From the NCBI GenBank assembly GCA_963767495.1, contig CAVYDY010000004.1, positions 156,985-220,984 on the forward strand: a DNA stretch of 64,000 nt. Reading direction: 5' to 3'. The translations under genes were made by a program, and so were the position numbers. This DNA comes from an uncultured Chloroflexia bacterium. Lineage in GTDB: Bacteria; Chloroflexota; Anaerolineae; Promineifilales; Promineifilaceae. Shown piece by piece: positions 11,901 to 38,229 of the stretch. Position 1 is the first letter of the stretch; each line of letters opens with the position of its first letter. Below the pieces are notes generated by a model that was not told the origin of the DNA, made no database searches, and worked only from the letters and a program-made list of their open reading frames with translations.

Positions 11901-12471
11901 CTTGAAGATGCCCGCTTTCTCCAGCCTGCCGCAGCTGACCTATTCCTATCTGCACGCCTTAAACGGCAATGAAGAAGAAGCACGGCGTCTGTTTCCGTCC
12001 AGTATCTACTCCCTGACCATCGCCAGGTCCGAACCAATTCTGTTTGGCCTGGCAGTTTCCACGGAACTGCTAATCACCCTCGCTGAAGAAGATTTCGCGG
12101 CGACGCTGAGCGGTGTCGATCAGGCACTGCGTGAGGCCAGGCAGAGCGGCCTGTCACTGCTCATCCCGGAACTGCAAATGATCAAAGCCCGGGCGCTGCA
12201 CGGCTTGAATCGCATCGATGAGGCGGCGCAGCTGCTCGCCGTCGCCGCGGAACATGCGCGCTCTTTTGGCGCGAAGAGGACTTTGCTGCCCATTCTCAGC
12301 CTGCAATCGCAGGTTGAGCAGGAGCAAGGCAATGAGCCTGCCGCAGCCGCCGCCCGGGCGGAAGGCCAGGCAGCAGCTGCCTTTATCGCCGGGCAGATCA
12401 GCGACCCCGATCTGCGCCGCAGCTTCTGGCAGACGGAGACGGCCGTACGGCTGAATGACGGCGCTGCCTGA
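8968..12471 (+). CDS. class III adenylate/guanylate cyclase domain fused to a STAND/AAA NTPase and TPR repeats
   Basis: Cyclase homology domain (ITLLFCDVTGSTAMAE..RLMGDAVLAFFGAP..GINTGPVVVGEIG..YTAMGDAVNLAARME). Walker A LTGEAGLGKSRL at aa ~260. Walker B VMVADDIHWSD. TPR-like C-terminal half. Starts 9 nt after the ZnF-UBP gene. Confidence 0.9.
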   Translation: MADQFTDAPQMPDGYADKLRQAQASRAMQGERRVITLLFCDVTGSTAMAEKLDPEEWAEIMNEAFQYMIAPIYTYEGTVARLMGDAVLAFFGAPIAHEDDPQRAVLAGLDIVTGIEQFAAEIEATYRMAFNVRVGINTGPVVVGEIGPDLAVEYTAMGDAVNLAARMEQTAEPGTVQIAENSYQLVEPFFNVTPLGPLAVKGKAQPVRAYRVDSIAAEPGSLRGLSGLDSPLVGREAELAQLRQIVSALRESERGQIVFLTGEAGLGKSRLIDELHTYWLATRQATPDGWRHWEQMAAVSFEASRPYGMIKHQLRSVCHISDSDTDEQARGKLAHTVSVFPPALQERLNLLYAILLGIGGEESELHPEGENFKRELFDAMLKANRLRAADQPTVMVADDIHWSDPASTEELENLLKLTLDLPILFLAIMRPERDSAAWAMKERVALDYAPQFSEINLRPLSSVESANLVDQLLPIEDMPTAVREMILQRTDGNPFFIEEVIRSLLDSGALQQSAGELHWNPGQSTAQISIPGNVQALLAARIDRLEKDSRHTLQLAAVIGRNFYRRVLDTISDTAAILDEQLRELEALAFIREAARLPEVEYAFRHALTRDAAYATILRRRRRQFHKRVGEAFEALFPDRLEEEAHRLAEHFSEALILDKAQHYYTMAGDHAGRLYANNEAIEHYGKAIRLARDSGTDQQLARLYKRLGRTYEADGHYDNALAMHKEMIALAEQRGAPSLKLQALLSEATIRGTFTDKFDARKGYALSNEALTLARELGDARAESKAYWNLSLLGTYAVQDVHQTIEHGEQAVSIARKHRLREELAYALHDLARPYAMAGRLADGQIALEEAAQLWRELGRSNMVADNRTTLAENLNLQGDLLNGINKCEEALRISRRTSSYWGQAYALATMAPMLLEIGRVDEALAAWDEGLDAAERANFSAPQVYARANLALSYAYLGDLERAFQVTDQAQRVVENLKMPAFSSLPQLTYSYLHALNGNEEEARRLFPSSIYSLTIARSEPILFGLAVSTELLITLAEEDFAATLSGVDQALREARQSGLSLLIPELQMIKARALHGLNRIDEAAQLLAVAAEHARSFGAKRTLLPILSLQSQVEQEQGNEPAAAAARAEGQAAAAFIAGQISDPDLRRSFWQTETAVRLNDGAA

Positions 12472-15665: not shown

Positions 15666-18139
15666 TCAGTCCAGGTTCACCCTACGCAGCCGCAGCGCAT
15701 TCATCACCACGCTGAAGCTGGAAAATGCCATCGCCCCCGCGGCCAGCATCGGATGAAGCTGGCGCAGGAAATCGGGCGCCCAGGTGAAGGGCGCCAAAAT
15801 ACCGGCGGCGATGGGAATCAGGGCCACGTTATAGCCAAACGCCCAACCCAGATTCTGGTGGATATTGCGCATCGTCGCCTTGGACAGGGTAAGCGCTTGG
15901 GGCACGCTGCGCAGATCGCCGCGCATCAAAATCACATCGGCCGTTTCTACAGCGACATCCGTCCCTGTGCCGATCGCCATGCCCACATCCGCCTGCGCCA
16001 ATGCCGGCGCATCGTTAATGCCGTCGCCGACCATGGCCACGATCCGCCCTTCTTCCTGCAGCTGCTTGACGTAGGCCGCTTTCTCGCCGGGCAGCACCTC
16101 GGCAAAGACGCGGTCTACGCCGGCCAGCCCGGCAATTGCCTTCGCCGTCGCTTCATTGTCGCCGGTCATCATCACCACGTCGAGGCCCATCTCCTGCAGG
16201 CGTTCCACCGCCTCACGCGAACCCTCCTTGATCGTGTCCGCCACGGCGATCAGCGCCGCCGCCTGACCATCAACAGCGAGCCACATCGCCGTCTTCGCCT
16301 CCGCTTGCAGCGCCGCCGCCTTGGGACCCAGGCCGTTCATAGCGACTGCCTCACGCTCCATCAGACGCTGGTTGCCCAAGAGAATGTGTTTGCCGTCCAC
16401 GGTAGCCGCAATGCCAAATCCGGCAATGCCTTCAAACGTATCCGGCATGCGCAGGGCCAGCCCCTGCTCCTCAGCAGATCGCACGATGGCCTCGCCCAGG
16501 GGATGTTCCGAACCGCGTTCGGCCGAAGCGGCCAGCTGCAGGAGATCGGCGCCGTCCAGAGCCGCCTGCTCGCTGAGCAGCACATCGGTCACCGCCGGTT
16601 CACCGCGCGTAATCGTACCCGTCTTGTCGAGGACAATCGTATCCAGATCATGCGCCTGTTCCAGCGCGGTGCTGTTGCGGAACAAGATGCCATATTCGGC
16701 GCCCTTACCCATACCCACCGTGATCGAGGTCGGTGTGGCCAGCCCCATGGCGCATGGGCAGGCGATAACGAGCACCGCTACCATGCGAATCAGCGCCTGC
16801 ACGGGATCACCCGTCGTCAGGTACCAGATGGCGAAAGTGAGCAGCGCGGTGATGATCACGAACGGTACAAAATAGGCGGCCACGCGGTCTACCACGCTTT
16901 GGATCGGCGCCTTGCTGCCCTGTGCCTGTTCGACAAGAGTGATGATCTGCGCCAGCGCCGTCTCTTTGCCCACGCGCGTCGCTTCGATGGTCAGCATGCC
17001 CTGCTTATTGATCGTTGCCCCGATCACTTCATCGCCGGCGGCCTTACTGACCGGCAGGCTTTCGCCGGTGATCATGCCCTCGTCTACCGCCGAACGGCCG
17101 TCCACGACGAGGCCGTCCACCGGGATCTCTTCCCCGGCCGTACGATCACCCGATCACCGACCAGCACCTCTTCGACAGGCACATCAATCGTCATGCCATC
17201 CCGCTCTACGCGCGCCGTCTTCGCCTGCAGGCCGGCCAGCTTGCGAATCGCCTCGCTCGTCTGGCCCTTGGCCCGCGCTTCGAGCAGTTTCCCGAGCACA
17301 ATCAGCGTAATAATCACCGCCGCTGTCTCGAAATAGACATGGGTACCCAAAGCGGTCGAGCCCATGGCCAGAGCGATCATCACGGCGATACTGAAGAAGT
17401 AGGCCACTGAGGAGCCCATCACCACCAACACATCCATGTTGGCGCTGCCGTTGCGCAGGCTCTTGTAAGCGCCGACATAATAATCCCACCCGACATAGAA
17501 CTGCACCGGTGTGGCCAGAGCGAGGAAAAGCCAGTTGACCCACGGTTCGTGCGACCACGCGCCCAGCAGCCCGAAATCGCGCGCCATGCTCAAGACAAAC
17601 AACGGCACCGTGAAGATCAGGCCGACCAGCAGCCGCTTCTGCTGGTGGTGAATCTCTGCCTCGCGCGCCGCCGCTTCAGCGTCTTCCATCACCTCGCCGT
17701 CGCCGCTGTCGACGACGTCATACCCCGCCCTGCGCACCACGGCCGCCAGTTCAGCGCGGGTGGTCACGCCCGGCGCATACGTAACCGAAGCCTTATTGGT
17801 TGCATAATTAACCGTCGCTTCAAGCACACCGTCCGATTTGTTCAGCCGCCGCTCAATGGTCGACGCGCAGTTGGCGCAGGTCATCCCCAGCAGAGGCAGT
17901 TCTACAGTCGCCGTAGGCACCTTGTAACCAGCGCGCTCCACGCGAGCGATCACAGTTGCCGTCGCCTCCCCCGCGCTGACCAGCGCCGGATCATAGGTGA
18001 AGGTCACCTTCTCACTGGCATAGTTAACCGCGGCGCCGCTGACGCCCTCCACCTTCTTGGCGTTGCGTTCCACCGCCGCCACGCAGTTGGCGCAGGTCAT
18101 GCCCAGCACAGGCAGGGTAATTTGCTTTGAATCACTCAT
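15666..18139 (-). pseudogene. copA: copper-translocating P1B-type ATPase CopA, interrupted by a 1-nt frameshift (ORF pieces 17084..18139 and 15666..17120)
   Basis: Two HMA domains (GMTCANCVAAVE and GMTCANCASTIE). [22 protein letters not shown] motifs. The reading frame breaks in RPG|KRSRW, where [15 protein letters not shown] is expected. Adding one G to the GGGG run (plus-strand CCCC at 17132-17135) restores the frame. Confidence 0.9.
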
Positions 18140-20142: not shown

Positions 20143-21189
20143 ATGATCACCCTACCTGGCCTCATCGACGTCCATACCCATCTCCGCGTGCCCGGCGGCG
20201 AGCACAAAGAAGATTTCACGACCGGCACCGCATCCGGCCTGGCCGGCGGCATAACTATGCTCCTGGCCATGCCTAACACCACACCGCCAATCACAACCGC
20301 CGAGGTACTGCGCAAGACGCGCGCCCAGGCGGCACAGGATATTCTCTGCGACGTCGGTCTCTTCGCCGGCGCCAGTCCCGAACACACGGCAGACCTTCCT
20401 GACCTGGCCCCCGGCGCCGCTGCGCTCAAGATCTATCTCAACGACACTTTCGGCCCGCTGCGCGTGGAGGATGTGCCCACCCTGCGCGCCTGCTTCCAGG
20501 AGTGGCCGCGTGAACAGATGATCGCCATGCATGCCGAGAAGCAAAGCGTCGCCGTGGGCATTGGTCTCGCCGCCACCTACAACCGCCCGGTCCATTTCTG
20601 CCATATCAGCCGCCGCGAAGAGATCGAACTCATCGCCGATGCCAAAATGCGCGGCCTGCCCGTCACCTGTGAAGTGACGCCTCACCACCTCTTCTTTGAC
20701 GAAGCGGACGCCCTGCGCCTGGGAACGCTAGGCGACATGCGCCCCGTTCTGGGCACGGCCGACGACGTCACCGCCCTGTGGCAGCACATCAACTACACCG
20801 TCGACTGTATCGCCACCGATCACGCGCCGCATACATTGCAGGAAAAAGGATCGGACACCCCCCCACCCGGCGTGCCCGGCGTAGAAACCTCACTGCCGCT
20901 GATGCTCACCGCCGTCGCCCAAGACCGGCTCACCCTCGAGCGCCTCATTGAGCTCATGCACCACAATCCGCGGCGCATCTACAATCTGCCCGAGCAGCCC
21001 GACACCCGCGTCGAAGTAGACATGACGCCGGCCATCATTCGCGGCGCGGAAACAAGAAGCAAGTGCGGCTGGTCTCCCTTCGACGGCATGGAGGTTGCCG
21101 GCCGCGTGTCGCGTGTCGTCCTGCGCGGCAAAATCGTCTACGAAGACGGCCGTGTTCTTGCTCAACCCGGTGATGGCTGGGTTTTGTAG
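20143..21189 (+). CDS. pyrC: dihydroorotase-family amidohydrolase, short CAD-like form
   Basis: LPGLIDVHTHLRVPGGEHKEDF...AMPNT...LKIYL...CEVTPHHL...DHAPH are DHOase metal and substrate motifs. It lacks the ~50-aa N-terminal beta-sandwich of typical type I enzymes. Confidence 0.75.
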   Translation: MITLPGLIDVHTHLRVPGGEHKEDFTTGTASGLAGGITMLLAMPNTTPPITTAEVLRKTRAQAAQDILCDVGLFAGASPEHTADLPDLAPGAAALKIYLNDTFGPLRVEDVPTLRACFQEWPREQMIAMHAEKQSVAVGIGLAATYNRPVHFCHISRREEIELIADAKMRGLPVTCEVTPHHLFFDEADALRLGTLGDMRPVLGTADDVTALWQHINYTVDCIATDHAPHTLQEKGSDTPPPGVPGVETSLPLMLTAVAQDRLTLERLIELMHHNPRRIYNLPEQPDTRVEVDMTPAIIRGAETRSKCGWSPFDGMEVAGRVSRVVLRGKIVYEDGRVLAQPGDGWVL

Positions 21190-21360: not shown

Positions 21361-21888
21361 TTATCCATCGCTGTCTTGCGCAAAGTAATCGCAGAGCGTT
21401 GCATCATCAAGAACTGTTAGGCCCGCCTGCCTGTCCTCAGGATAGGTGAAACTGTCGCTGTCATGATAGACAAGGCCATGACCAGGTATATTTATATTCC
21501 ATCCAATGCCGACCCAATGGGCAGATATGGGATTGTCCTCTTCCGTAGCCGGCGGCTCCCATTTTACCTGTAGGTTGATATGGTAAGTACCGTTGAGCAC
21601 CTTATCGGGATTCCCCTCACGATATATCATGTCAGTGCCATTGACGTGCTCATTTCTTTGTAGCAAGTTGCCATCTCTGTCATGCCGGTCCTTGATGCGG
21701 GCGAAAGCTTCTTCGTGATTCCAGAGCCAGAAATCACCGACTCCGATTTCTCCGCCGCAGTAAACCAGTGGATAATCAGAAACCACGTGATAATGCTCTG
21801 GGGGTTGGGATCGCGGGGCTGCAAAAGCAGGAACCACCATTGCGGCAAGCATTAGTACGAGTATGAATAGAACCATTATCTTTTTCAT
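21361..21888 (-). CDS. secreted hypothetical protein
   Basis: Signal peptide MKKIMVLFILVLMLAAMVVPAFAA. AAGGAG RBS. Sits in low-GC DNA. No recognisable domain. Confidence 0.6.
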   Translation of the reverse strand: MKKIMVLFILVLMLAAMVVPAFAAPRSQPPEHYHVVSDYPLVYCGGEIGVGDFWLWNHEEAFARIKDRHDRDGNLLQRNEHVNGTDMIYREGNPDKVLNGTYHINLQVKWEPPATEEDNPISAHWVGIGWNINIPGHGLVYHDSDSFTYPEDRQAGLTVLDDATLCDYFAQDSDG

Positions 21889-22152: not shown

Positions 22153-22386
22153 TCAAATATTCTGGTTAACGTGGGGTCTGTTTGAACGGTCAAGGGTGCC
22201 GATTCGTCTTATCAGTGCCGCCACAGCTGTTACCGGCATAAACAGGATTCCTCCTACCGTATGAGAAGGATTTTCACTTGCCCTGTTATTACTGCGGTTC
22301 AAAGAGCGATGGCTCTCAGCTTCATTGATTCTTGTCTGTATTCGTTCATTTACTTGCTGGTTTTGCCAACTGTAATTGCCGTTCAT
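22153..22386 (-). CDS. small hypothetical protein with one hydrophobic segment
   Basis: Strong GGAGG 5 nt upstream of the ATG at 22386. Has a polar N-terminus followed by GGILFMPVTAVAALI. Low-GC region. Confidence 0.45.
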   Translation of the reverse strand: MNGNYSWQNQQVNERIQTRINEAESHRSLNRSNNRASENPSHTVGGILFMPVTAVAALIRRIGTLDRSNRPHVNQNI

Positions 22387-22441
22387 TTTGACCTCCGCTT
22401 GGTCCGAAAATTGAATGTCATGTCAACAGTATCCACAACAG

Positions 22442-22511
22442 CCGTTTTCAGAACGTTTCATTGCCGTTACCAAATATGGCCATACCGTTACCATTTGCTC
22501 CGTTGGTAACG
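22442..22511. promoter_or_regulatory. phased CCGTT-core direct repeats in the divergent intergenic region
   Basis: CCGTTTTCA (22442), ACGTTTCA (22453), CCGTTACCA (22464), CCGTTACCA (22485), CCGTTGGTA (22500). CGTT cores are spaced 11, 11, 21 and 15 nt. CGTTACC (22486) and GGTAACG (22505) also form an inverted pair. Confidence 0.45.
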
Positions 22512-22605
22512 ACTTTGTGTTAACCTCAAGTAGGCGAACAGGTTCTTGTGCAGGAACTGGGGGGATCTGTTTGGCTAATCTCTAATTTGATAAAGGATAC
22601 AGTGG

Positions 22606-25600
22606 ATGGAACAATTGAATATCACCCTCTTTGGCCCGCTGCAGATTTTCCTAGACAATGAACTGGTCTCTGATTTTCGTACGAAAAAAGTGGTGGCCTT
22701 GCTTGTATACCTGGCGGCCGAACCGGAGAGAGCACATCGCCGGGAAACACTGATGACCCTGCTGTGGCCAGGCATGCCTGAGACCTCTGCCCGCGCCAAT
22801 TTACGTCAGGTATTGTTTCGCCTCAAGCAAGCGATGTCTGATTTTGTGGTGGAAGACACGGCCGTTCCCCTACTGATCACCAACCGCCACACCATCCAGA
22901 TAAATCGGGCTGCCCCTGTTCTCGTCGATTCAGTGCAGTTTGAATCTCTTTTGAGCCAGACCCGGAGCCACGACCACGTTGACCTCTTGACCTGTCACAC
23001 GTGCAGAAGCAACCTGGTCGCCGCGGCCACGCTCTACACCGGGCACTTTTTGGCAGACTTTTACTTGGAAGACAGCAACGAATTTGAGGAGTGGGCAGAA
23101 ATCAGGCGGCAAGGAACCATGCGGAAAGCACTGGACGCGATGGATATCCTGACCACCATCGCCATGCGCCAACAGGCCTATGCTGAAGCTCGTATGCTGG
23201 CTGAACGCCAACTAGAAATTGACGACTTGCGCGAAAGCGCCTATCAGCAGTTGATGGAAATCTCGGCGCGTAATGGCCAGCGCAATGAGGCGCTGGCTGT
23301 CTACGAGAAGTGCCGCCGCCACCTCATGGAAGAGCTGGGCATGGCCCCAGCCAAGCGCACGACCACCCTCTACGAGCAAATCCTGGCCGGGGATTTGCGG
23401 TTCGATTCTGTTCAAGAACAAGGGGCGCGTGGCTATGAACTACAGGATGAGATTGGCGCTGGCGCTTATGGGGTCATTCATCGCGCCATACAACCTGCTA
23501 TTGGACGCGAAGTAGCGGTCAAGGTAATTCGTCGTCGCTACGCCAATGATCCTTCTTTTATTCGGCGCTTTGAAGCTGAAGCACAAACAATTGCCCGCCT
23601 GGAGCATCCGCACATCGTCCCTCTTTATGATTATTGGCGCGATCCGGAGGGAGCGTACCTGGTCATGCGGTTGCTGCGTGGGGGTAATCTACTAACCGCA
23701 TTGGCGGACGGACCCTGGCCGGTCGATCGTACGCAAAAATTACTTGACCAAATCACACCTGCCTTAGCCGCTGCTCATCATCATGGTGTTGTCCATCGCG
23801 ATATTAAACCGGCCAATATCCTGTTTGATAAGAGTGATAACGCCTATCTCTCAGATTTTGGCATTGCCAAAGATTTGCACAGCGATCGTCAGTTCACGAT
23901 GGAAGCTGGTATTATGGGCACGCCTGATTACATCTCACCAGAACAGCTGCTGGAGGAAAGGGTCAGCCCGCAGTCGGATATCTACAGTTTGGGGGCGGTC
24001 CTTTATGAAATGTTGACGGGTGAGAAGCCATTCCCAGATGCGCCGATGGCGACGGTCATTCAGAATCATCTATCGACCCCATTCCCGCTAGTCTCTGAAA
24101 GTCGCCCCGACGTGCCGTCACAGATTGATGAAGTAATTCAACAAGCCACCGCCAAACGGCCGTCTGACCGGTACGCCAATGTCATGGAAATGGCGGCGGC
24201 CTTTCGCTCGGCTGTGCAAGGTATCTCTGGAGAGCCGGCAGCACCGGCTGTCACCCCCGTAGTTGAACCGCTCTACAACCCCTACAAAGGTCTGCGTTCA
24301 TTCCAGGAAGCAGACGCTGATGACTTCTACGGTCGCGAAGGGCTTGTCGAGCAGTTGATCGCAGGCGTGGCCGATTCGAGGTTCCTGGCCGTCGTCGGAC
24401 CCAGCGGCAGCGGCAAGTCCAGCGCAGTCAAGGCTGGACTCATCCCGGCACTGCGCAAAGGGGTTATTCCCTCTCGCGACGATCAGGCTCGTTCGGACAA
24501 GTGGTTCGTGACCGAAATGACACCGGGCAGCCATCCCCTAGAAGAGCTGGAATTGGCCCTGTGGCCCATTGCAGTTGACCCGCCACCATCGCTGGTCGAG
24601 CCGATGCGCCACGATACGCGCGGACTCTCGCGAACGATTCGCCGCATTTTGCCCAACGAAGAGGGCGCCCAACTTCTGCTAGTTATTGACCAGTTTGAGG
24701 AGCTTTTTACGCTAGTGGACGATGAGGAGCGGCGGGCCTTTTTCATCGACAGCCTGTTGACAGCCATCCGCGACCCGCGCAGCCCGCTGCGCGTTGTCAT
24801 TACCCTGAGGGCTGACTTTTACGACCGTCCTCTGCAGATGCAGAGTCTTGGCAAACTGCTGAAGGAAAATACGGCGATCGTTTTACCTATGCCGGCCGCG
24901 GATTTGACCTGGGCTATCCGCGAACCGGCGCGGCGCATGGGTGTGCGGCTGGAACCGGGCCTAGCGGAAGCCATTGTGGCCGACATCAGCGACCAGCCCG
25001 GCGGACTGCCCCTTTTACAATTTGCCTTGACAGAGTTGTTTGAGCAGCGCCAAGATGGGCAAATGACGCGTGCGAGCTATGAGAAGATTGGCGGCGCGAC
25101 GGGCGCGCTGGGGCGGCGGGCAGATGAAATATATGATGAACTCGATGAAGCCGGGCAGGAAGCGACACGGCAGCTCTTCATGCGTCTGGTAACCTTGGGA
25201 GAAGGGGTTGAGGATACCAGGCGGCGAGTTCTGCGCTCAGAAATTGAATCGGTTGACGATAGTCAACAGTCGGTGGTTGATGAGTTTGGCCAGGCGCGGT
25301 TGTTGACTTTTGATCATGATCCGGTCACGCGGGAGCCAACAGTGGAGGTGGCGCACGAAGCTTTGCTGCGGGAGTGGCGCCACCTGCGTTCCTGGTTGGA
25401 TGAGAGTCGCAGTGATGTGCGCACCTTACGCCTGCTGTCCCTAGCTGCGAACGATTGGCAGGGCGGTGGACGAGATGACAGCTATCTGCTCCGCGGTTCA
25501 AGACTGGAACTGTTTGCCGGTTGGGCAGCCGGCAGCAGCATTGTAATGACTGAGAGCGAGCGCCAATTCCTGGACGCCAGCATCGCCTGGCGGCTGGAAC

Positions 25601-28035
25601 GGCAGACCCAGGAAGAAGGCCGGCGGCAAGAGGAGCTGGAGACGGCTCAGAAGCTGGCCGCAACGGAGAAAGCACGGGCGGAAGCTGAAGAGCAGAGAGC
25701 TGAAGAACAAGCGTTAGCGGCCCAAGGTTTCCGCCGGCGTTCTTATGTTCTGGGTGGTGTATTGGTAATGGCCGTCTTGCTGGCCAGCGCTGCCTTCTTT
25801 TTTGCCCAGCAGTCGAGCGAGAATGCCGCCGAGGCCCAGGACAACGCCCAGCTCGCGGCAACACGAGAGGCCGAGGCCGTGGCTGAAGGTCTTCGTGCCG
25901 ACAATCAGCGGGATGTCGCCTTGGCCGCGGGAGTTGAGGCTGATGGGGCACGGGTGGCGGCTGAAGAACAGGCTAGAGTCGCCTTTTCCCGCGAGCTGGC
26001 AGCTGAAGCCGTCAGCAATCTGGCCGAGGATCCACAGCGCAGCGTACTGCTCGCACTACAGGCTCTCAGCACAGCCCATACCCAGGAGGCAGAAGAAGCC
26101 CTACACCGCGGCATTCCCAATCTCAGGCTCCTGCAAACAATGGTTGGTCATGAGGACGGTATCTCTGACCTGGACTACAGCCAGGATGGTTCTCGCCTGG
26201 TGTCCTCAAGTTGGGACGGCTCGGCGCGGGTTTGGGATACGGCGACCGGCCAGGAAGTGCTTGTGTTGGGCGAGCCAGAAGAGACAATTGAAAATGTGGC
26301 TTACAGCAGTGATGGTTCCTTCATAGTCACTGGGGGCCCTGACATTGACAGAACGCTGGATATAGCAAGAATGTGGGATGCAGCCAGCGGTGAGCTAATC
26401 GCTGCCTTTCCCAATGACAGCGACAATCCATATTCTGACTGGAATATCGGTATGGACATCAGTCCTGATAGCAAAAGCGTAGCTGTCAGCGACGGATTTG
26501 GGCGGGTCACATTGTGGGATGCAGCCACGTTGACTGAACGCGCCACTTTTGACATGAGTGAAACAGATGTGGCGCACGTCAAACTGGCTTTCAGCCCCGA
26601 TGGTTTCCGTTTGGTTATGTTGGGTGCCCTTGAGGACGACAATAAAGTTATCCGAATTATCGAAGTTGATTCGGGTACCGAATTACTGTCAATTGAAGAC
26701 GTGGGTAATGACTTCGCACTCAGTCCCGATGGCAGGCGATTATTGGTTGGTGATCAAAACGGCCGGGCAGTGCGTTTGTGGGATCTTGATGCCATGGTTG
26801 AAATGGATCGTTATCCAGCTTATGCAACGAATGAAGTTGGGGGCCTGGCGTTCAGCCCGGACGGCGCGCGCTTTTCAAGCTATACACGAGATCTTTCCGG
26901 TGTTCAGATTTGGGAAACCGAAACGGGTCGCGAGATAATGACGCTGCCCGCTCACCGCGGCCTGATGTCGAACATTCTTTTCAGTCCGGATGGCAGCAGT
27001 CTGGCTACCACTGGCCATGACAAATTTGTGAAGGTTTGGGACATCACTCCCGCGCGCGAACTCCTGACGGTACAGCCATTTATCGAGGATGACTGGGCGG
27101 AGGTTACCAGTATCGCTTTCAGTCAGGACGGGACCATGCTGGCGGCAGGCGGAATTGTTGGTGGGGTTTCGTTGTGGGACCCGGTCACGGGGGAAAGTCT
27201 GAACATGCTGGAAGGGCATAACGATTTTGTCGGTGGTTTGAGCTTCAGTCCCACTGGGGATCGCCTGGCCAGCGGCAGTGATGACAGCACGGTTATGATG
27301 TGGGACACCACAACAGGTGACCTGCTGTTCACGCTGACCGATCATGAGGATTGGGTCAACAGTCTGGTCTACAGCCCGGATGGGGCCACCATTGCCAGCG
27401 CCGGCAATGATGCCCAATCGTTTGTATGGGATGCGACCAGCGGTGAAGTTCTATATCAATTCCCACTACCGGATCGGGCCTGGGGTATCGCCTACAGTCC
27501 AGACGGCACGCTGTTGGCCACCGGGTGGTTAGGAGGCGTGGCTGTTCGGGATATGGCTAGCGGGCAGACTGTAAGCGAAATCGATTACGATCAGAATGCT
27601 CTCCATGTGTACTTTTCAGCTGACGGATCGCACCTGATCACCGCGGGTGTGGATGGTATCGTGAGGATCTGGGAAGTGGGAACAGGGCAGCTGGTGCAGG
27701 AGATTAATGCGGACCAACAAATTCTGCAGGGATCGTCTGTCAGTCCCGACGGGAGTATCGTTGCCACGGCATCGAATGGAAGTGACGTGCGGCTGTGGGA
27801 TTATCAGAGCGGGGAGCGTAGGCTAATCTTGGAGGGGGCCGGAGAAGGCGTGACCTTGGCCGAATTCACACCGGATGGGCGGCAGTTGGTAACGGGCGGC
27901 TTTGATGGCAACGTGCGCTTCTATGTCCTGGCAGTGGATGAATTGGTAGACCTTGCCGAATCCCGTTTGACGCGCTCATTGTCGGAAGAGGAATGCCAAG
28001 AATACCTGCATGTGGATGCCTGCCCGGCTGAATAG
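22606..28035 (+). CDS. 1809-aa multidomain protein: SARP-type wHTH + BTAD, Ser/Thr protein kinase, STAND (nSTAND-like) NTPase, coiled coil, one TM helix, ~14 WD40 repeats
   Basis: wHTH/BTAD about nt 22606-23400 (KKVVALLVYLAAEP..LWPG..ARANLRQVLFRLK; ESAYQQLMEISARNGQRNEALAVYEKCRRHLMEELG). Kinase about nt 23434-24210 (GAGAYGV, VAVKVI, HRDIKPANIL, DFG, GTPDYISPE). NTPase about nt 24271-25410 (NPYKGLRSFQEADADDFYGRE, GPSGSGKSS, LLLVIDQFEELF). TM about nt 25741-25803 (SYVLGGVLVMAVLLASAAFFFA). WD40 blades about nt 26128-27960 (repeated ..VWD/LWD/IWE endings). Confidence 0.9.
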   Translation: MEQLNITLFGPLQIFLDNELVSDFRTKKVVALLVYLAAEPERAHRRETLMTLLWPGMPETSARANLRQVLFRLKQAMSDFVVEDTAVPLLITNRHTIQINRAAPVLVDSVQFESLLSQTRSHDHVDLLTCHTCRSNLVAAATLYTGHFLADFYLEDSNEFEEWAEIRRQGTMRKALDAMDILTTIAMRQQAYAEARMLAERQLEIDDLRESAYQQLMEISARNGQRNEALAVYEKCRRHLMEELGMAPAKRTTTLYEQILAGDLRFDSVQEQGARGYELQDEIGAGAYGVIHRAIQPAIGREVAVKVIRRRYANDPSFIRRFEAEAQTIARLEHPHIVPLYDYWRDPEGAYLVMRLLRGGNLLTALADGPWPVDRTQKLLDQITPALAAAHHHGVVHRDIKPANILFDKSDNAYLSDFGIAKDLHSDRQFTMEAGIMGTPDYISPEQLLEERVSPQSDIYSLGAVLYEMLTGEKPFPDAPMATVIQNHLSTPFPLVSESRPDVPSQIDEVIQQATAKRPSDRYANVMEMAAAFRSAVQGISGEPAAPAVTPVVEPLYNPYKGLRSFQEADADDFYGREGLVEQLIAGVADSRFLAVVGPSGSGKSSAVKAGLIPALRKGVIPSRDDQARSDKWFVTEMTPGSHPLEELELALWPIAVDPPPSLVEPMRHDTRGLSRTIRRILPNEEGAQLLLVIDQFEELFTLVDDEERRAFFIDSLLTAIRDPRSPLRVVITLRADFYDRPLQMQSLGKLLKENTAIVLPMPAADLTWAIREPARRMGVRLEPGLAEAIVADISDQPGGLPLLQFALTELFEQRQDGQMTRASYEKIGGATGALGRRADEIYDELDEAGQEATRQLFMRLVTLGEGVEDTRRRVLRSEIESVDDSQQSVVDEFGQARLLTFDHDPVTREPTVEVAHEALLREWRHLRSWLDESRSDVRTLRLLSLAANDWQGGGRDDSYLLRGSRLELFAGWAAGSSIVMTESERQFLDASIAWRLERQTQEEGRRQEELETAQKLAATEKARAEAEEQRAEEQALAAQGFRRRSYVLGGVLVMAVLLASAAFFFAQQSSENAAEAQDNAQLAATREAEAVAEGLRADNQRDVALAAGVEADGARVAAEEQARVAFSRELAAEAVSNLAEDPQRSVLLALQALSTAHTQEAEEALHRGIPNLRLLQTMVGHEDGISDLDYSQDGSRLVSSSWDGSARVWDTATGQEVLVLGEPEETIENVAYSSDGSFIVTGGPDIDRTLDIARMWDAASGELIAAFPNDSDNPYSDWNIGMDISPDSKSVAVSDGFGRVTLWDAATLTERATFDMSETDVAHVKLAFSPDGFRLVMLGALEDDNKVIRIIEVDSGTELLSIEDVGNDFALSPDGRRLLVGDQNGRAVRLWDLDAMVEMDRYPAYATNEVGGLAFSPDGARFSSYTRDLSGVQIWETETGREIMTLPAHRGLMSNILFSPDGSSLATTGHDKFVKVWDITPARELLTVQPFIEDDWAEVTSIAFSQDGTMLAAGGIVGGVSLWDPVTGESLNMLEGHNDFVGGLSFSPTGDRLASGSDDSTVMMWDTTTGDLLFTLTDHEDWVNSLVYSPDGATIASAGNDAQSFVWDATSGEVLYQFPLPDRAWGIAYSPDGTLLATGWLGGVAVRDMASGQTVSEIDYDQNALHVYFSADGSHLITAGVDGIVRIWEVGTGQLVQEINADQQILQGSSVSPDGSIVATASNGSDVRLWDYQSGERRLILEGAGEGVTLAEFTPDGRQLVTGGFDGNVRFYVLAVDELVDLAESRLTRSLSEEECQEYLHVDACPAE

Positions 28036-28221: not shown

Positions 28222-29097
28222 TCAGGCACTGCCAACCAGCGGCAGGCGGCGCAGCATGCCGGCAAGCCGCAGCGCATCGCGCGGCACGTATTCGGTGATT
28301 CCCAGACCGACCACATCGAATTCCTGGGAGACATCGGCCAGCAGGCGCACGGCCGTTTCAACGCCCAATCCGTTCGCTGCCTGCCAGATCGTTGAACTGA
28401 ACGCCGCCGGCTCCAGTACATCGAGGTCGAAATGAATCGCCACGCGTGACGCGCCACATTCGCGCATCCACTGCAAGACGACATCACTGCTCGCCGCAAC
28501 CTCGTCAACTGTCGCGTTGGGTATCGTCACGCCAAAATGGGTTTGCACAGCGTCCAGTTCATCGACAGCGGCGCGCAGGCCGGTAAACAGCAGCTGAGCT
28601 GGAACCAGCGGACGCGTCACCTCGGCGACAAACGCCGCATCGCCCAATCCCAGCAGCGCGCTGAGCACCATCGAGTGAAAGTTAACGTTGCGATCGTCCT
28701 GCTGTGGCAGCGCCGTGTCCGGGTGTGCGTCCAGCCACAAGACAGCCAGGTCGCCGTCATACCGCTCGTTCAGATAGGCGACCGGTGCGAAATCCACGCT
28801 GCACTCGCCGCCAAAGACGACGACGCGGTCCGGCTGACGCCTTTCCAGGATACGCCGCGCCTCACGCGCCTGCGCCAGCAGTACCTCGCGGGCGAAGATG
28901 CCCTGTTCAACCGTGTGGCCCTCGCGCCCCAGGCCGATCGTGACCTCTTCAACCGCCGCACTCGAAGGTGGCGCCAACCAGGCCAACAAACGGCCGCCCA
29001 GGTAATAGCCGGGCTGCTCTCCCCCACCCTGCCACTGCGGCATCAACAAGCGTAGCGTCAATCCGTCGTCTGCATCTGCTGTCGTTTGCATAGGCAT
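28222..29097 (-). CDS. arginase/agmatinase/formiminoglutamase-family metallohydrolase
   Basis: LWLDAHPD and VAIHFDLDVLEP match the ureohydrolase Mn-binding motifs. Confidence 0.7.
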   Translation of the reverse strand: MPMQTTADADDGLTLRLLMPQWQGGGEQPGYYLGGRLLAWLAPPSSAAVEEVTIGLGREGHTVEQGIFAREVLLAQAREARRILERRQPDRVVVFGGECSVDFAPVAYLNERYDGDLAVLWLDAHPDTALPQQDDRNVNFHSMVLSALLGLGDAAFVAEVTRPLVPAQLLFTGLRAAVDELDAVQTHFGVTIPNATVDEVAASSDVVLQWMRECGASRVAIHFDLDVLEPAAFSSTIWQAANGLGVETAVRLLADVSQEFDVVGLGITEYVPRDALRLAGMLRRLPLVGSA

Positions 29098-29202: not shown

Positions 29203-30579
29203 CTAGCGGGCAGCCAGCTTCGCGCCTTCGGCCGTGTCCTCGATCTCGTACCCCAGCTCACGAATCTGCTCACGCAGCGCATCCGCCTCAGCCCACCGTT
29301 TCTCCAGCCGCGCCTGATCCCGCTGCTGAACCAGGATCATGACCGCTTCCGGCGCCGCCTCCTGCGCCGGCTGCCAAGCCGCGAGGTCCAGTCCTAACAC
29401 TTTATCGAAGGCCAGTACAGTCCCCTTCTTGACGGAATCAGGCAGATCACTTTTTGCCAACTCCCAGGTCACTGCCAGCGCGCGCGGCATATTCAAATCA
29501 TCGTTGATCTGTGCCGTGAAACTCCGCAGGAAGCCCGCATCGGCCGTTCCCGGCGCGCCCCATGCGTAGACGGCCGTGCGCAGCCGGTTCAGCGCCGTTT
29601 GCGCCCCTGCCACGCCCTGCCAGTTGAAAGTCAGCTTCGATCGGTAATGACCGCCAAGGCAGAAGAAACGCCACACCAGCGGCTCATACCCTTCATCAAG
29701 CAGCGTCTGCAGGCGCAGGAAATTGCCGGCCGATTTGCCCATGCGCCCCGCATCCGACAGCTGCAAGAAATAGCCGTGCATCCAGAAATTGGCCAGGTTG
29801 GTGCCGTGACACGCCTGCGTCTGCGCGATCTCATTCGGATGGTGCACCATGATATGATCTTCGCCACCCGTATGGATATCAAAGAAGGGGCCGAGATACC
29901 TGGCCGACATGGCCGAGCATTCAATGTGCCAGCCGGGGAAGCCGACGCCCCAGGGGCTCTCCCATTCCATTTGCCGCTGTTCATCGGGCCGGCTGAACTT
30001 CCACAGTGCGAAATCGGTGGGCGAACGCTTTTCAGCCATCTCTACGCGCGCGCCGGCCTGCAGTCCCTCGATATCCAGGCGCGCCATACGGCCGTATTCC
30101 GGCATTCTGGCCGTATCGAAATAGACGCCGTCAGACGTCTCATACGTATATCCCTGCGCCTCAATGCAGCGGATGAAATCGATCTGATCCTGGATATGGT
30201 CCGTGGCCCGGCACCAGATGTCCGGCTCCAGGATATTCAACGCGCGCAGGTCATTCTGGAACGCCTCCGCGTAGAGTTCGGCGATCTCCCAGGCGGTCCG
30301 GCCCGTGCGCCGCGAACCGGTCTCCATCTTGTCTTCCCCCGTGTCAGCATCGGAGACCAGGTGCCCCACGTCGGTGATATTCATCACGTGGGTTACCTCA
30401 TACCCATTGAAGCTCAGAACGCGCCGCAGGATGTCGGAGAAGATGTAGGTGCGTAGATTGCCTATGTGCGCGTAATCGTAGACCGTCGGCCCACAGGAAT
30501 AAAGACCGACCTGCGGCGGGTTCAATGCTTCGAATTCGCGCAAGCTGCGCGTCAAGGTGTCATATAAGCGAAATTCCAT
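29203..30579 (-). CDS. cysS: cysteine--tRNA ligase
   Basis: CGPTVYDYAHIGNLR (HIGH motif), GGEDHIMVHHPNE, and the KMSKS-like RMGKSAGN. Length is typical of CysRS. Confidence 0.93.
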   Translation of the reverse strand: MEFRLYDTLTRSLREFEALNPPQVGLYSCGPTVYDYAHIGNLRTYIFSDILRRVLSFNGYEVTHVMNITDVGHLVSDADTGEDKMETGSRRTGRTAWEIAELYAEAFQNDLRALNILEPDIWCRATDHIQDQIDFIRCIEAQGYTYETSDGVYFDTARMPEYGRMARLDIEGLQAGARVEMAEKRSPTDFALWKFSRPDEQRQMEWESPWGVGFPGWHIECSAMSARYLGPFFDIHTGGEDHIMVHHPNEIAQTQACHGTNLANFWMHGYFLQLSDAGRMGKSAGNFLRLQTLLDEGYEPLVWRFFCLGGHYRSKLTFNWQGVAGAQTALNRLRTAVYAWGAPGTADAGFLRSFTAQINDDLNMPRALAVTWELAKSDLPDSVKKGTVLAFDKVLGLDLAAWQPAQEAAPEAVMILVQQRDQARLEKRWAEADALREQIRELGYEIEDTAEGAKLAAR

Positions 30580-33122: not shown

Positions 33123-34304
33123 ATGTTTGATGCAGAGGAAAGAACGCGCCGCTGGCGGCTGGTCCTCGGCCAGGATCCGGACAGCGAACAAGGCGGCGGC
33201 GAGAGCGGCGAAGGGCAGGAATCGGCGGACGGACTCTCCCCTGAGGACCAGGCGCTCGATCAGGCGCTGGAAACTCTCTACGGCGATGGGGATGAGGGCG
33301 ATCTCAGTGACTCAGCGCCCGACCTCGCCCGCTGGCTGGGGGACATCCGCTCCTATTTCCCCGACAACGTGGTGCACATTATGCAGCGCGACGCCCTACA
33401 GCGTTTCAAGCTGCGCAACGTCCTCGATCAACCGGAACTTCTGGCGGCAATAGAGCCGGATGTCCACCTGGTAGCCGATATCCTGGCCCTCAACAAGGTG
33501 ATGCCCGTGCAGACGCGTGAGTCGGCGCGCGACGTGGTGCGCCAGGTCGTTGAGGAGATGCGTGAGAAGTTGACGTACCCTCTGGAACAGGCGATTAAAG
33601 GCAGCCTGAATCGGGCGACACGCACCCGGCGGCCGCGCTTCAAAGAGATTAACTGGGGGCGCACGATTCACAAGAACCTCAAGCATTACCAGCCGGCGCA
33701 GCAGACAATCGTGCCCGAAACGCTGGTCGGCTACGGCCGTAAACGATCGTCGCTGCGCGATATTATCATCGCCCTGGACACCAGCGGCTCTATGGCCACA
33801 TCGGTGGTTTACGGAAGCATCTATGCCGCCGTGCTGGCCACGATTCCCGCTGTCTCCACACATCTGGTGATGTTCGACACCTCAGTGGTTGACCTGACCG
33901 AAGAGATGAGCGATCCGGTCGATCTCCTCTTCGGCATTCGCCTGGGCGGCGGCACCAATATCGACCGCGCTCTCGCCTACTGCCAGAATCTTGTGTCACG
34001 CCCGCAGGATACCGTGCTGGTCCTGATCAGCGATCTTTTCGAAGCAGGGAACAAGGAAGGGGTCGTGCAGCGCCTCTCTGACCTAACGGCCGGCGGCGTC
34101 AAAGTGGTCACCCTGCTCGCCCTCAATGACAAAGGGGCGCCCCGCTTCAATCGTGAGATCGCCGGGCAGCTGGCGGAGCTCGGTCTGCCCTCCTTCGCCT
34201 GCACGCCCGATCTTTTCCCCGACCTGATGGCCGCCGTCCTCGAAGAGCGCGATCTGTTCCATTGGGCGGCCGTCAACGACGTCGTCACCGCGCCCGATAA
34301 CTAG
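33123..34304 (+). CDS. VWA domain protein (CoxE/YehP-like)
   Basis: The MIDAS-type motif appears as IIIALDTSGSM, followed by GGGTNI and LISDLFE. Acidic N-terminal region. Confidence 0.75.
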   Translation: MFDAEERTRRWRLVLGQDPDSEQGGGESGEGQESADGLSPEDQALDQALETLYGDGDEGDLSDSAPDLARWLGDIRSYFPDNVVHIMQRDALQRFKLRNVLDQPELLAAIEPDVHLVADILALNKVMPVQTRESARDVVRQVVEEMREKLTYPLEQAIKGSLNRATRTRRPRFKEINWGRTIHKNLKHYQPAQQTIVPETLVGYGRKRSSLRDIIIALDTSGSMATSVVYGSIYAAVLATIPAVSTHLVMFDTSVVDLTEEMSDPVDLLFGIRLGGGTNIDRALAYCQNLVSRPQDTVLVLISDLFEAGNKEGVVQRLSDLTAGGVKVVTLLALNDKGAPRFNREIAGQLAELGLPSFACTPDLFPDLMAAVLEERDLFHWAAVNDVVTAPDN

Positions 34305-34551
34305 GCATCCACGAATCCACAAACTACTGCCCAACAGAGGCGCAAGATTGTGCATCCCCACAAGATCGCAAGTCTTAACGTCTCTGCGGCGTCTAGCCGA
34401 TGTGGAAAGAGCCCTAAAATCGACTTGAGAGCTCTTCGTCCTTTGAACGATCTTTACCGGCCCGGCACTCTACATTGTATCAGCGCCTATGGGAATCAAG
34501 GGCCAAATCGTTGATACAATAAAAGGCCTCAGCCAAGATAAATGTCAACGA

Positions 34552-35388
34552 CTACGGGAGGTAGCTGTTGACGAAATCCAGGACATTCTGTCTGTCCATA
34601 CGGAAAACGCCGCCGGTACCCCTGCAGTTTCCGTTCAGACCAAAAGAAGTTACGCCACCGACCACATTGCTGTCGTAAATGAAATTCGGCCCACCCGAAT
34701 CACCAAAGCATGTCCCGCCGGTTGAGTGGTTGTTGGACAGAAGAAGCGAAAAATCTCCGGTCGAGCCGGGTGCGTTTATGGCGTTCAGCTTCGGGTTAGC
34801 AAACATGCGCACTTTGTCTGCTGATTCGTATACCGGGCTGATGTACTGCAGTCCATAGCCGACTGCCGTAAACCACAATTCATGCTTTCCTCGCTGCTTC
34901 GCGTATTTATCGAGTTCGTCAGCCTCCGGCAGTACGCCAAATTCCTCAATGGGCACGCCGTATTCATCAGTAACGACACCAGGATCTTCAAGAATAACCA
35001 CGCCTACATCATTGTAGAAGAAAGGCGCAGTTTCATAGGACGGGTGAGCATGCCACGAGACTGCTTCTACGCTGTTGGGTCCCGAGAGAGGGTAATTGTT
35101 GTCGCCATTTTCGACATCCGATTCGATAAAGACACGCATGCCCGTGAAAGGCTCATCCGGGTAATTTGACGTGCAATGACCAGCGGTCAGGACAACGGTC
35201 GGCGAAAGCAAGGTCGCACTGCAGCGGAAGGCTGGTGCTCCACCGACTTCCATTAAGAGCAAAACCACATGGGGATGGCCATCTTCGTCCAGTTCGCCAT
35301 TTGTAATTGCCGACGCGCCGGCAACTATCCCCAACATAAAGACCAGGACGACGGCCGTAACGATCAATAAGCTTTTCTTGTTGTTCAT
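34552..35388 (-). CDS. secreted trypsin-like serine protease (S1 family)
   Basis: Signal/anchor KKSLLIVTAVVLVFMLGIVAGASA. Catalytic motifs LTAGHC and CFGDSGGP. Confidence 0.88.
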   Translation of the reverse strand: MNNKKSLLIVTAVVLVFMLGIVAGASAITNGELDEDGHPHVVLLLMEVGGAPAFRCSATLLSPTVVLTAGHCTSNYPDEPFTGMRVFIESDVENGDNNYPLSGPNSVEAVSWHAHPSYETAPFFYNDVGVVILEDPGVVTDEYGVPIEEFGVLPEADELDKYAKQRGKHELWFTAVGYGLQYISPVYESADKVRMFANPKLNAINAPGSTGDFSLLLSNNHSTGGTCFGDSGGPNFIYDSNVVGGVTSFGLNGNCRGTGGVFRMDRQNVLDFVNSYLP

Positions 35389-36941: not shown

Positions 36942-38229
36942 CACGGTTTTTCCAAAGTCAGCCATATGACGATAGGGCAAGGGTAAACTTAGCATCGAAT
37001 TTGCGCCGAGCTGATGCCAGATTGCGAAAACCAAGCTTGCTCATTAGGCCGATGATGAAATTGTTTAGGACGGCCATTGCTTCGGCCAGATAATCGTTGG
37101 ACATACGAGTCCCATCTTCATCCAAGGTAACATCGCGGCGATAGTGCAAACCATTTTCGATACCCCAATGATTCCGCGTCCACTCTAATAGTTGTTTTGC
37201 AGATGCTTTCTCCGGTGACATGCTCGTGATGCCAACGACCTCATCAATGGAAATGACGCCAGTCGTCATCTCAGTCACTTTTCTCTCCAACTTGAATACC
37301 TGCTGCAGACCAGGCCAGTCAATAAATCCGCTGTCATCCGCAATTACTGTCAGAGTCCGTTGCTCCAGACGTCCATGCCCCTTTTCTGTTGTCTGTGCCT
37401 CGCCCCGTACTAGTTCTGGTGCATGCCAACCGAGCGCTCTTCTTGCTGGTGCGAAGAACTGTTCAACATCTTCTTTCAGACGCGGCTGATTGCCCTTCAC
37501 AAACCACAAGTAATCGCCACCTTCATAGAGTACCTGGGCCGACAAGTTGCGTTGGGTGAACAGGGCATCACCGACCACAACACGCCCCCTGAGGTCCAAA
37601 GATGTTAAGATGCGTGGCGCTGCAGTCAGTTCACTCTCTTTGCACTCTACTGCCACCTGCATCAAGACAATCCCTTCTTCGGGAAGATAGGCCACCAGTA
37701 AGTGCACGCCACTGGATTCTCCTTTTGGAATCGTCCCCCGTAATGTCTTGCCGTCCAGGGTGACCAGTATGCTTTGCTGACCGCCATAGGTTTGATGCAG
37801 GAAGCGATTGAAGACTGTCTGTAACTCTTCAGCTATGACTGTCTCTGCCAGTGTCCGCCGTATGGTGTTGAGTGAGGGCACTGTCTGCCGCTCGGCGCTA
37901 AAGGCGATTGCCAACTGTTTTTCCCGCAGTTTCGCCCACTCGGCAATTGCACTGGGCTTATTCTGCCCGCAAAGCTTGGCCAAAACGATGATGCTCAATA
38001 GATATGGTAACGAGTATCGTATCCCTCGCCGGCTCCGCTGGTCGCTGACCTGCTGCAAATGCTCCATGAATGCATGAATATCAAAGACAACCCCATCCGA
38101 CAAAACGCCTTCCAATGTGATATGATCTTGCATGAGAACCTCTTTCGTTATTTGGTTTTTGAGCAAATCCCATAATAACAGATTGAGGTTCTTTCGTTTT
38201 ATATCTTTTTCGACTTTGGAAAAGCCCTG
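36942..38229 (-). mobile_element. ISAs1-family insertion sequence (1288 bp) with 18-bp imperfect terminal inverted repeats
   Basis: The left end is CACGGTTTTTCCAAAGTC (36942-36959). The reverse complement of the right end (38212-38229) is CAGGGCTTTTCCAAAGTC, so 16 of 18 positions match. Flanked by an identical 10-bp direct repeat. Lower GC than its surroundings. Confidence 0.85.
36958..38133 (-). CDS. ISAs1-family DDE transposase
   Basis: The N-terminal DDE_Tnp_1_assoc-like region is DQRSRRGIRYSLPYLLSIIVLAKLCGQ. LDGKTLRGT, DALFTQ and NHWGIENGLHYRRDVTLDED are hallmarks of ISAs1/H-repeat transposases. ATG at 38133 has an AGAGG RBS. Confidence 0.9.
   Translation of the reverse strand: MQDHITLEGVLSDGVVFDIHAFMEHLQQVSDQRSRRGIRYSLPYLLSIIVLAKLCGQNKPSAIAEWAKLREKQLAIAFSAERQTVPSLNTIRRTLAETVIAEELQTVFNRFLHQTYGGQQSILVTLDGKTLRGTIPKGESSGVHLLVAYLPEEGIVLMQVAVECKESELTAAPRILTSLDLRGRVVVGDALFTQRNLSAQVLYEGGDYLWFVKGNQPRLKEDVEQFFAPARRALGWHAPELVRGEAQTTEKGHGRLEQRTLTVIADDSGFIDWPGLQQVFKLERKVTEMTTGVISIDEVVGITSMSPEKASAKQLLEWTRNHWGIENGLHYRRDVTLDEDGTRMSNDYLAEAMAVLNNFIIGLMSKLGFRNLASARRKFDAKFTLALSSYG

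Follow-up and report, generated by a model that had tools for sequence, protein, structure and literature searches.

What does a protein do that joins a transcription activator, a protein kinase, a nucleotide-dependent switch and a large repeat sensor in one chain, and on which side of the membrane does its sensor lie? The question is raised by a gene in a 64,000-nucleotide stretch of contig CAVYDY010000004.1 (the window hereafter) from an uncultured Chloroflexia bacterium. Domain searches found all five modules that had been proposed in a first-pass annotation, namely a SARP-type winged helix with BTAD, a Hanks-type Ser/Thr kinase, an nSTAND NTPase, a coiled coil with a transmembrane (TM) helix, and WD40 repeats. 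The sequence evidence favours, with a probability of roughly 0.6, a one-chain signal transducer that crosses the membrane once and whose SARP module binds its own promoter. The main new result is the promoter arrangement of the SARP-bearing genes, and the interest of the locus lies in a probable outside-in STAND switch together with a testable operator. The N-terminus of the product agrees with the N-termini of homologues, and the gene and its promoter are read as follows.

22606..28035, + strand: the whole gene, ATG start, 1809 codons plus stop, 1809 amino acids (open reading frame (ORF) reading, homologue N-termini, collinear homologues)
22464..22472, + strand: direct-repeat box 1, CCGTTACCA, a candidate SARP operator with an exact copy 21 nt downstream
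22485..22493, + strand: direct-repeat box 2, CCGTTACCA, starting 36 nt upstream of the -10 hexamer
22503..22511, - strand: inverted copy of the box in the promoter spacer, TTGGTAACG on the + strand (sequence match)
22518..22526, + strand: extended -10, TGTTAACCT, with the hexamer TAACCT at 22521-22526 (TGnTAnnnT conserved in homologue loci)

The extended -10 stands 80 nt before the ATG, and no -35-like hexamer was found 17 nt upstream of it. Repeats of this kind are characteristic of the SARP-type loci: among these related sequences, 12 of 18 carry, within 350 nt of upstream sequence, an exact 8-mer that recurs after 10/11, 21/22 or 31/32 nt, compared with five of the 56 kinase-only loci (Fisher p 3e-6), and shuffled upstream sequences gave a mean of 0.5 of 18 with phased repeats and a maximum of three. 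The boxes share the core CGTCAACAAA, with lineage variants. In seven of the eight loci with boxes spaced at 21 nt, the TGnTAnnnT hexamer lies 34-37 nt past the start of the second box. The two closest relatives (P0002 and P0005; loci L113 and L115) keep the whole arrangement with the box variant CCGTTAGCA and the inverted copy TTGCTAACG, a single C/G change co-varying in all three box copies between the window and these loci. The inverted copy in the spacer is limited to the window's clade, where it could add negative feedback.

A metagenome scan with the pattern CGTCAACA-N13-CGTCAACA-N22-28-TGNTANNNT returned 29 matches, of which 12 stand directly upstream of a SARP ORF of this family and a 13th (L098) about 1 kb upstream. 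The spacers of these 13 promoters are diverse and TGnTAnnnT is found at the same distance from the boxes; most of the other matches are unrelated perfect 21-nt tandem repeats. The variable residue of the SAR-x-NLRQ motif in the recognition helix tracks the box variant: Ala accompanies CGTTAxC, His or Gln accompanies CGTCAAC, and Thr and Val go with ATCGTAAA and GCGTGAAC, respectively, in a small sample that is confounded by phylogeny. Since phased boxes occur upstream of SARP-bearing genes and not of the kinase-only relatives, the simplest reading, and the one that the pattern suggests, is that the SARP module binds the boxes and that the gene is autoregulated.

Two further elements lie in the same upstream region. 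About 40 nt upstream of box 1, at 22424-22439, is CAACAGTATCCACAAC, conserved as CAGTATCCACAAC or CAGTATACAC in L113 and L115, a candidate for an additional element of the promoter or operator. An ORF of 82 residues (22261-22509) overlapping the boxes has no family match and was taken as spurious.

The putative binding partner of the boxes occupies the N-terminus of the protein.

22606..23400, + strand: SARP module, OmpR-type winged helix at residues 1-100 and BTAD at residues 107-260 (Pfam, AfsR/EmbR matches, AlphaFold2/Foldseek)
22969..23004, + strand: H122-x-H124-x5-C130-x2-C133 loop at the start of the BTAD, residues 122-133 (conservation, AlphaFold2 model)

The BTAD is matched by PF03704 over profile positions 1-146 of 146 (residues 107-260, E 5e-20). 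The winged helix-turn-helix (wHTH) gives a weak Pfam match at residues 26-79 (Trans_reg_C, E 4e-4, under the gathering score). When compared with solved structures, the first 273 residues matched AfsR (E 3e-6, residues 6-263) and EmbR, with the wHTH span (residues 3-79) aligned. The AlphaFold2 model of residues 1-275 (pLDDT 93, pTM 0.87) found its best PDB match by Foldseek in the AfsR SARP of transcription-initiation complexes 8K60 and 8HVR (TM-score 0.70-0.78), EmbR being second and TPR proteins coming after both. The identity of the wHTH is therefore secure despite the weak Pfam score, because of the sequence matches to AfsR and EmbR and the superposition of the model. A feature absent from canonical SARPs is the loop formed by H122 to C133 between helices 108-121 and 131-143 of the model; its four residues H122, H124, C130 and C133 are each at least 90% conserved in family sets A1 and A2, and could form a zinc (metal) or redox site on the cytoplasmic side.

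Whether the SARP acts on DNA from the membrane can be asked in view of CadC, a membrane-bound regulator for which proteolytic cleavage-dependent activation is reported (PMC11484849). The protein might accordingly be a membrane receptor kinase whose SARP is freed by regulated proteolysis, or whose SARP is a mere protein-binding scaffold that does not bind DNA while tethered, the BTAD being TPR-like and TPR proteins following AfsR and EmbR among the Foldseek matches. We regard this as very unlikely: no protease gene is linked at any of the loci examined, the recognition helix of the wHTH (SARxNLRQ) is highly conserved among homologues, and the phased boxes argue for DNA binding. Moreover, ToxR-like receptors are described as membrane-integrated proteins in which sensing is united with the activation of transcription (PMC5430869), and ToxR and CadC as acting while tethered to the membrane (PMC5430869, PMC7496328).

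Tethering itself would depend on the region following the NTPase, in which five features were distinguished.

25552..25743, + strand: helical/coiled-coil connector, predicted cytoplasmic, ending in R1043-R1045 (AlphaFold2 helix, conserved LRRRA)
25744..25806, + strand: predicted TM helix Y1047-A1067 (Kyte-Doolittle, homologue conservation)
25807..26100, + strand: helical stalk rich in Ala, Glu and Gln, variable in length and predicted to lie outside the membrane (AlphaFold2 model, alignment)
26149..27921, + strand: 14 WD40 blades, forming two seven-bladed propellers (blade hidden Markov model (HMM), Pfam)
27922..28032, + strand: C-terminal tail LTRSLSEEEC(1797)QEYLHVDAC(1806)P with a conserved cysteine pair (alignment)

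Y1047-A1067 is the single strongly hydrophobic segment of the protein, as called by a 19-residue Kyte-Doolittle mean (2.5), and RRR (R1043-R1045) stands just before it. A helix at the same place was found in 119 of 120 homologues (mean 2.2-3.3), always preceded by LRRRA, and in 77 of the 78 complete loci, with or without a SARP, amounting to more than 190 relatives overall. Counted over 15 residues on either side, lysine and arginine together average 4.7 N-terminal of the helix and 1.8 C-terminal of it, which by the positive-inside rule would place the N-terminal 1046 residues in the cytoplasm. The distribution of cysteines points the same way. After the helix their number is even in 102 of 108 homologues (two in 78, four in 21, six in three), whereas before the helix it ranges from 0 to 7 without parity (49 even, 59 odd). 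An even number of cysteines is reportedly, from the analyses of Dutton and Beckwith, an established mark of disulfide formation in exported proteins. The two cysteines that are constant after the helix are C1797 and C1806, in the tail LTRSLSEEECQEYLHVDACP; their positions shift in other branches, but nearly all relatives still have two. Additional cysteines after the helix lie close together in twos, at about 10 different sites of the alignment in various lineages, and singletons are rare.

Because the helix is conserved, its N-terminal flank is rich in Arg and Lys and the cysteines beyond it are paired, an N-in/C-out topology is supported, in which the SARP, kinase and NTPase would be cytoplasmic and the stalk and propellers outside. 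The ToxR-like layout with external WD40 repeats that had been suggested for this protein thereby gains support. In the AlphaFold2 model, one helix extends from residue 983 to 1054, and the stalk contains a helix at residues 1075-1137; with 28% gaps and 36% identity among homologues, the stalk fits a spacer in its variable length and helicity. Periplasmic WD40 repeats have also been predicted in single-pass Ser/Thr kinases of Planctomycetota (PMC11032199).

Some observations weigh against a membrane receptor that acts on its own promoter. The TM segment has low confidence in the AlphaFold2 model, and one representative, P0131, has the helix cleanly deleted (…QAAQRLQRQ joined to VRLTTSRELA…, residues ~1075-1085) with the propellers and the cysteine-paired tail kept; a pseudogene, an assembly error or a variant that resides in the cytoplasm could each account for it. 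The cysteine-parity and promoter-repeat statistics count related sequences, and their independence is overstated. Taking the hexamer as -12 to -7 puts the proximal box at about -48 to -38, adjoining without overlapping the -35 position that the afs box of AfsR occupies (PMC10936776), and a different regulator could bind the boxes. A second box pair was sought throughout the 64-kb window as a guide to regulon members and none was found; single near-matches to the box numbered 19 against 9.3 ± 3.1 expected, a figure mildly above chance that includes the three promoter copies.

All characterized STAND regulators (MalT, GutR, AfsR and Apaf-1) have cytoplasmic sensors (PMC10936776, PMC7159879). The whole protein could likewise be cytoplasmic or peripheral, with the helix serving as an oligomerization or membrane-docking element and the WD40 repeats sensing an intracellular ligand, as in Apaf-1 and the soluble STAND regulators. 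P0131, which lacks the helix, agrees with such a protein, as do the SARP-kinase modules that occur with TM-less ATPase-TPR-SBP_bac_5 or NB-ARC-TPR partners (P0141 and P0242). A 21-residue segment with a Kyte-Doolittle mean of 2.3-3.3 is, however, too short for a hairpin, its conservation in more than 190 relatives is accompanied by a strong positive-inside bias, and paired cysteines occur only C-terminal of it, so that a wholly cytoplasmic protein appears unlikely. Under the preferred membrane-spanning layout, the propellers would face the exterior.

The blade HMM gave 14 WD40 matches at residues 1182-1772, within a region of Pfam WD40/propeller families from about residue 1175 to 1785, in agreement with an earlier estimate of some 14 blades in two propellers. 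The WD40 part is the fastest-diverging part of the protein, with 28-33% identity to homologues compared with 66-68% for the kinase and NTPase. No DNA tandem repeats were detected in the gene by Tandem Repeats Finder, so that the WD40 repeats cannot have undergone concerted evolution at the DNA level, and no diversifying element was found in it. The effector and repeat layout is that typical of STAND proteins, with the SARP and kinase N-terminal of the NTPase and the 14 blades C-terminal.

Between the SARP and the connector lie the two enzymatic modules.

23434..24177, + strand: Hanks-type Ser/Thr kinase with intact catalytic residues (Pkinase profile, PknB-type match)
24280..25479, + strand: nSTAND1 NTPase, with NPYKGL lead-in, Walker A GPSGSGKSS, Walker B LLLVIDQFEE and GxP LPLLQ (PF20703)

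The Pkinase profile covers residues 277-524 (Pfam, E 4e-51), and a PknB-type match was also found (E 2.5e-85). Judging from 32 homologues, in which K306, N404, D417 and F418 are invariant and D399 nearly so (at least 90%), the catalytic residues of the kinase are intact, as its motifs had been read in the first-pass annotation. PF20703 matches residues 559-958 over profile positions 1-378 of 379 (E 1.5e-121), with Walker A at G598-S606 and Walker B at D695; GPSGSGKSS and D695QFEE are invariant among the same 32 homologues. A sequence search of the PDB with the region from nSTAND1 to the TM helix found no relative. Foldseek with the nSTAND1 model gave just generic AAA+/ORC/NB-ARC matches (TM-score 0.2-0.35) with a loose likeness to Cdc6/ORC, NB-ARC and CED-4, which allowed no closer assignment of the fold.

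A possible sequence of events can be proposed from these modules. A ligand would bind the fast-diverging propellers outside the membrane and alter the association of the membrane-spanning and coiled-coil helices, upon which nSTAND1 would switch or oligomerize in a nucleotide-dependent manner. Autoinhibition of the SARP would then be relieved and the kinases brought together for trans-phosphorylation. In AfsR, the NOD and TPR inhibit the SARP and ATP binding lifts the inhibition, and AfsK phosphorylates the AfsR NOD, including the last Walker A residue, raising its ATPase activity (PMC10936776). The membrane-tethered SARP would bind helically phased direct repeats, one target being its own promoter (boxes at 22464 and 22485, extended -10 at 22518), with feedback on its own expression. 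A fuller proposal is a membrane-spanning STAND receptor of the NLR type, in which ligand binding to an extracellular double propeller would be relayed by the one TM helix to nSTAND1, nSTAND1 would gate both the fused kinase and a tethered SARP driving its own promoter, and paralogues would make up a repertoire of cue receptors; this is put forward tentatively, as possible rather than probable. The literature searched yielded no account of a STAND switch that works from the outside in.

The architecture is widespread. It is shared by at least 120 protein clusters, the number of best clusters listed; BTAD, Pkinase and nSTAND1 were found in all 120 of these, and about 108 are full length (1700-2000 residues). 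More than 100 independent assemblies (JGI, ENA, NCBI and Logan) encode collinear full-length homologues with 42-70% identity, so the ORF is not an assembly chimera, a possibility that had been raised at first. The homologues are annotated merely as 'protein kinase', 'WD40 repeat protein/SARP' or hypothetical, and no description of this architecture was found in the literature searched. An earlier proviso, that the same architecture might prove common and already characterized, thus turned out right as to its frequency and not as to its characterization.

In a scan of one genome per GTDB species, at least 589 relatives were found, nearly all in Chloroflexota (Promineifilaceae, Caldilineaceae, Anaerolineales, Aggregatilineales and Phototrophicaceae), with three loci from Actinomycetota metagenome-assembled genomes. 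Module profiles run on 80 loci kept from these relatives distinguished two classes. The first has the order SARP-kinase-nSTAND1-coiled coil/TM-WD40-tail (~1750-1900 residues); the second, more frequent among the 80, has the same order without the SARP (~1500-1600 residues). Several genomes carry two family copies (L060/L062, L021/L053 and L032/L064). The family core would then be kinase-nSTAND1-TM-WD40, to which one branch appears to have added a SARP output. On this sequence evidence the protein is a member of a large, so far undescribed Chloroflexota family and no singular oddity.

Searched by itself, the SARP module matches 2926 clusters (E <= 1e-30) in a set of 1.84 billion representatives. 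The top 150 of these relatives are mostly of about 1000-1150 residues, and SARP+AAA_16/NB-ARC+TPR is the prevalent plan; of those checked, P0135 is SARP+AAA_16, P0160 is SARP+NB-ARC+TPR (the large SARP/AfsR plan) and P0176 is SARP-nSTAND1-TM. SARPs have been classed as small, medium (with NB-ARC), large (with NB-ARC and TPR) and SARP-LAL, and AfsK phosphorylates AfsR (PMC10972967). The view that a SARP is an unusual effector for a STAND protein does not hold, given that AfsR and the medium and large SARPs consist of SARP and NOD, with or without TPR (PMC10972967, PMC10936776). The SARP-kinase pair also recurs outside the family, in P0141 (SARP-kinase-AAA_16-TPR-SBP_bac_5, without a TM helix) and P0242 (kinase-SARP-NB-ARC-TPR), indicating that the association exists in more than one arrangement. 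P0141 was considered as support for an extracellular sensor and rejected, as it has no hydrophobic helix.

The genes closest to the locus are mostly of housekeeping type.

20143-21189, + strand: amidohydrolase-family gene (family match)
21361-21888, - strand: ORF without a family match (profile search)
28222-29097, - strand: arginase-family gene (family match)
29203-30579, - strand: cysS (family match)

A DUF4332 gene and dapF are also among the flanking genes, and the SARP-bearing gene stands alone on its strand. Across seven loci (the window and six homologue loci, with unrelated neighbours), neither a conserved gene neighbourhood nor adjoining defence genes were found. PADLOC returned kinase-domain matches (PD-T4-6 and mad6) that are no stronger than the PknB match, and a candidate profile for kinase plus NTPase, C3a189, covering residues 283-1168. 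The G+C content of the gene is 0.566, compared with 0.576 for the window (standard deviation of 5.4-kb windows 0.024); low G+C is confined to the 717-bp upstream intergenic region (0.463), within which the promoter lies. Contrary to the first impression, the gene is thus not compositionally atypical, and neither a defence-island nor a foreign-DNA reading is supported.

These results also bear on the proposal that the protein is an NLR-like nSTAND1 sensor of conflict or immunity, in which the WD40 repeats detect an invader, the NTPase oligomerizes, the kinase shuts the cell down and the SARP is a secondary output. The proposal has some basis, as the definition of nSTAND1 comes from predicted counter-invader systems, in which S/T/Y kinases are among the N-terminal effectors (PMC8195603), divergence is fastest at the sensor end, paralogues are expanded in filamentous bacteria and the PADLOC profiles named above do match. 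Context lends it no support, however, since the housekeeping neighbours (cysS, dapF, arginase-family and amidohydrolase genes) differ at every homologue locus examined, and PADLOC gave nothing better than the generic match to PknB. The sensor is moreover predicted outside the cell, where Avs/NLR-type systems are not known to sense phage proteins, the gene has neither tandem repeats nor a diversifying element, and at the output end stands a conserved transcription activator that has an operator-like promoter of its own. A conflict or programmed-death role is therefore doubtful, and a signal-transducing receptor remains the preferred reading.

Several other features of the window were recorded. 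Ten kb upstream, at 8968-12471 on the + strand, is a second signalling protein of effector-STAND-repeat design, with an adenylate/guanylate cyclase domain, AAA_16 and MalT-like TPR in 1167 residues. A heavy-metal P-type ATPase at 15666-18139 (- strand) is split into two overlapping ORFs, 17084-18139 with two HMA domains and the first ~36 positions of the E1-E2_ATPase profile, and 15666-17120 with the remainder and the hydrolase domain, which indicates that the gene is a pseudogene or carries a frameshift or sequencing error near 17084-17120. An IS4-type DDE transposase (DDE_Tnp_1 with DDE_Tnp_1_assoc) is encoded at 36958-38166 (- strand) in a stretch of lower G+C (0.52-0.54). In the region 33123-35388, a VWA CoxE-like gene (33123-34304, + strand) adjoins a trypsin-like protease gene (34552-35388, - strand); vWA and trypsin domains are components of vWA-MoxR ternary conflict systems (PMC7159879), and no search for MoxR was made.

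STAND/NLR switches are understood as cytoplasmic sensors, and a widespread family with its sensor outside would, if confirmed, extend their known uses. The fusion of kinase, STAND NTPase and SARP is independent evidence that the three parts work as a unit, and it bears on the logic of the AfsK-AfsR pathway, in particular on the respective roles of phosphorylation and ATP. The conserved box pair with the extended -10 provides a concrete candidate DNA target. The family is abundant in Anaerolineae, which are dominant in wastewater and sediment communities and hard to culture, and whose signalling is almost uncharted; through paralogue expansion, filamentous Chloroflexota would possess a receptor repertoire for extracellular cues if the proposed role is correct.

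Among known systems, AfsR/AfsK of Streptomyces is one of the closest parallels: an N-terminal SARP of the same fold precedes an NTPase of the STAND type, and a repeat sensor comes last. AfsR is acted upon by a Hanks kinase, as the present regulator would be, and the target sites (candidate sites in the present case) are direct repeats in helical phase beside a promoter without a good -35. The differences are that the kinase is here in cis between SARP and NTPase, that the NTPase is of the nSTAND1 clade and not NB-ARC, that the sensor is WD40 and not TPR, and that a TM helix separates NTPase and sensor. The boxes here are 21 nt apart and upstream of -35, whereas those of AfsR are contiguous 11-nt repeats over -35. 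An AfsR-type large SARP is a soluble protein of SARP, NB-ARC-type NOD and TPR, and the present protein falls outside that definition. EmbR of M. tuberculosis (SARP and FHA) with PknH is similar in that a SARP regulator is under a Hanks kinase; in that case, however, the FHA reads the phosphorylation, the kinase is a separate protein and there is no NTPase, TM helix or repeat sensor.

M. tuberculosis PknD and the planctomycete TM-STK-WD40 proteins share the cytoplasmic Hanks kinase, single TM helix and external propeller (predicted in the present case, and predicted as periplasmic WD40 repeats in many planctomycete kinases, PMC11032199), but have no STAND NTPase between kinase and membrane and no DNA-binding output in the chain. 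The nSTAND1 conflict systems (Kaur, Iyer, Burroughs & Aravind, 2021) share PF20703, an N-terminal effector (kinase being listed) and C-terminal repeats; those described use FGS/C-lectin sensors, EAD adaptors, DGR elements and defence neighbourhoods, none of which is present here, and a SARP output or a membrane-spanning layout was not found in that description. The ToxR-like receptors (ToxR, CadC and TcpP) resemble the protein in their N-terminal OmpR-type winged helix, single TM helix and extracytoplasmic sensor (predicted in the present case) on one chain, and CadC has a functional periplasmic disulfide (PMC3096576). They are small and lack kinase and NTPase, whereas here about 780 residues of enzymatic switch stand between the DNA-binding domain and the membrane, and the wHTH carries a BTAD. 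ToxR-like signalling dispenses with chemical modification and nucleotide-dependent modules, which is not so here; the protein may work like that family without being a member. It lacks defining features of both the AfsR and the ToxR families, but in its presumed mode of action it resembles AfsK and AfsR combined in a single chain and also a ToxR-type receptor.

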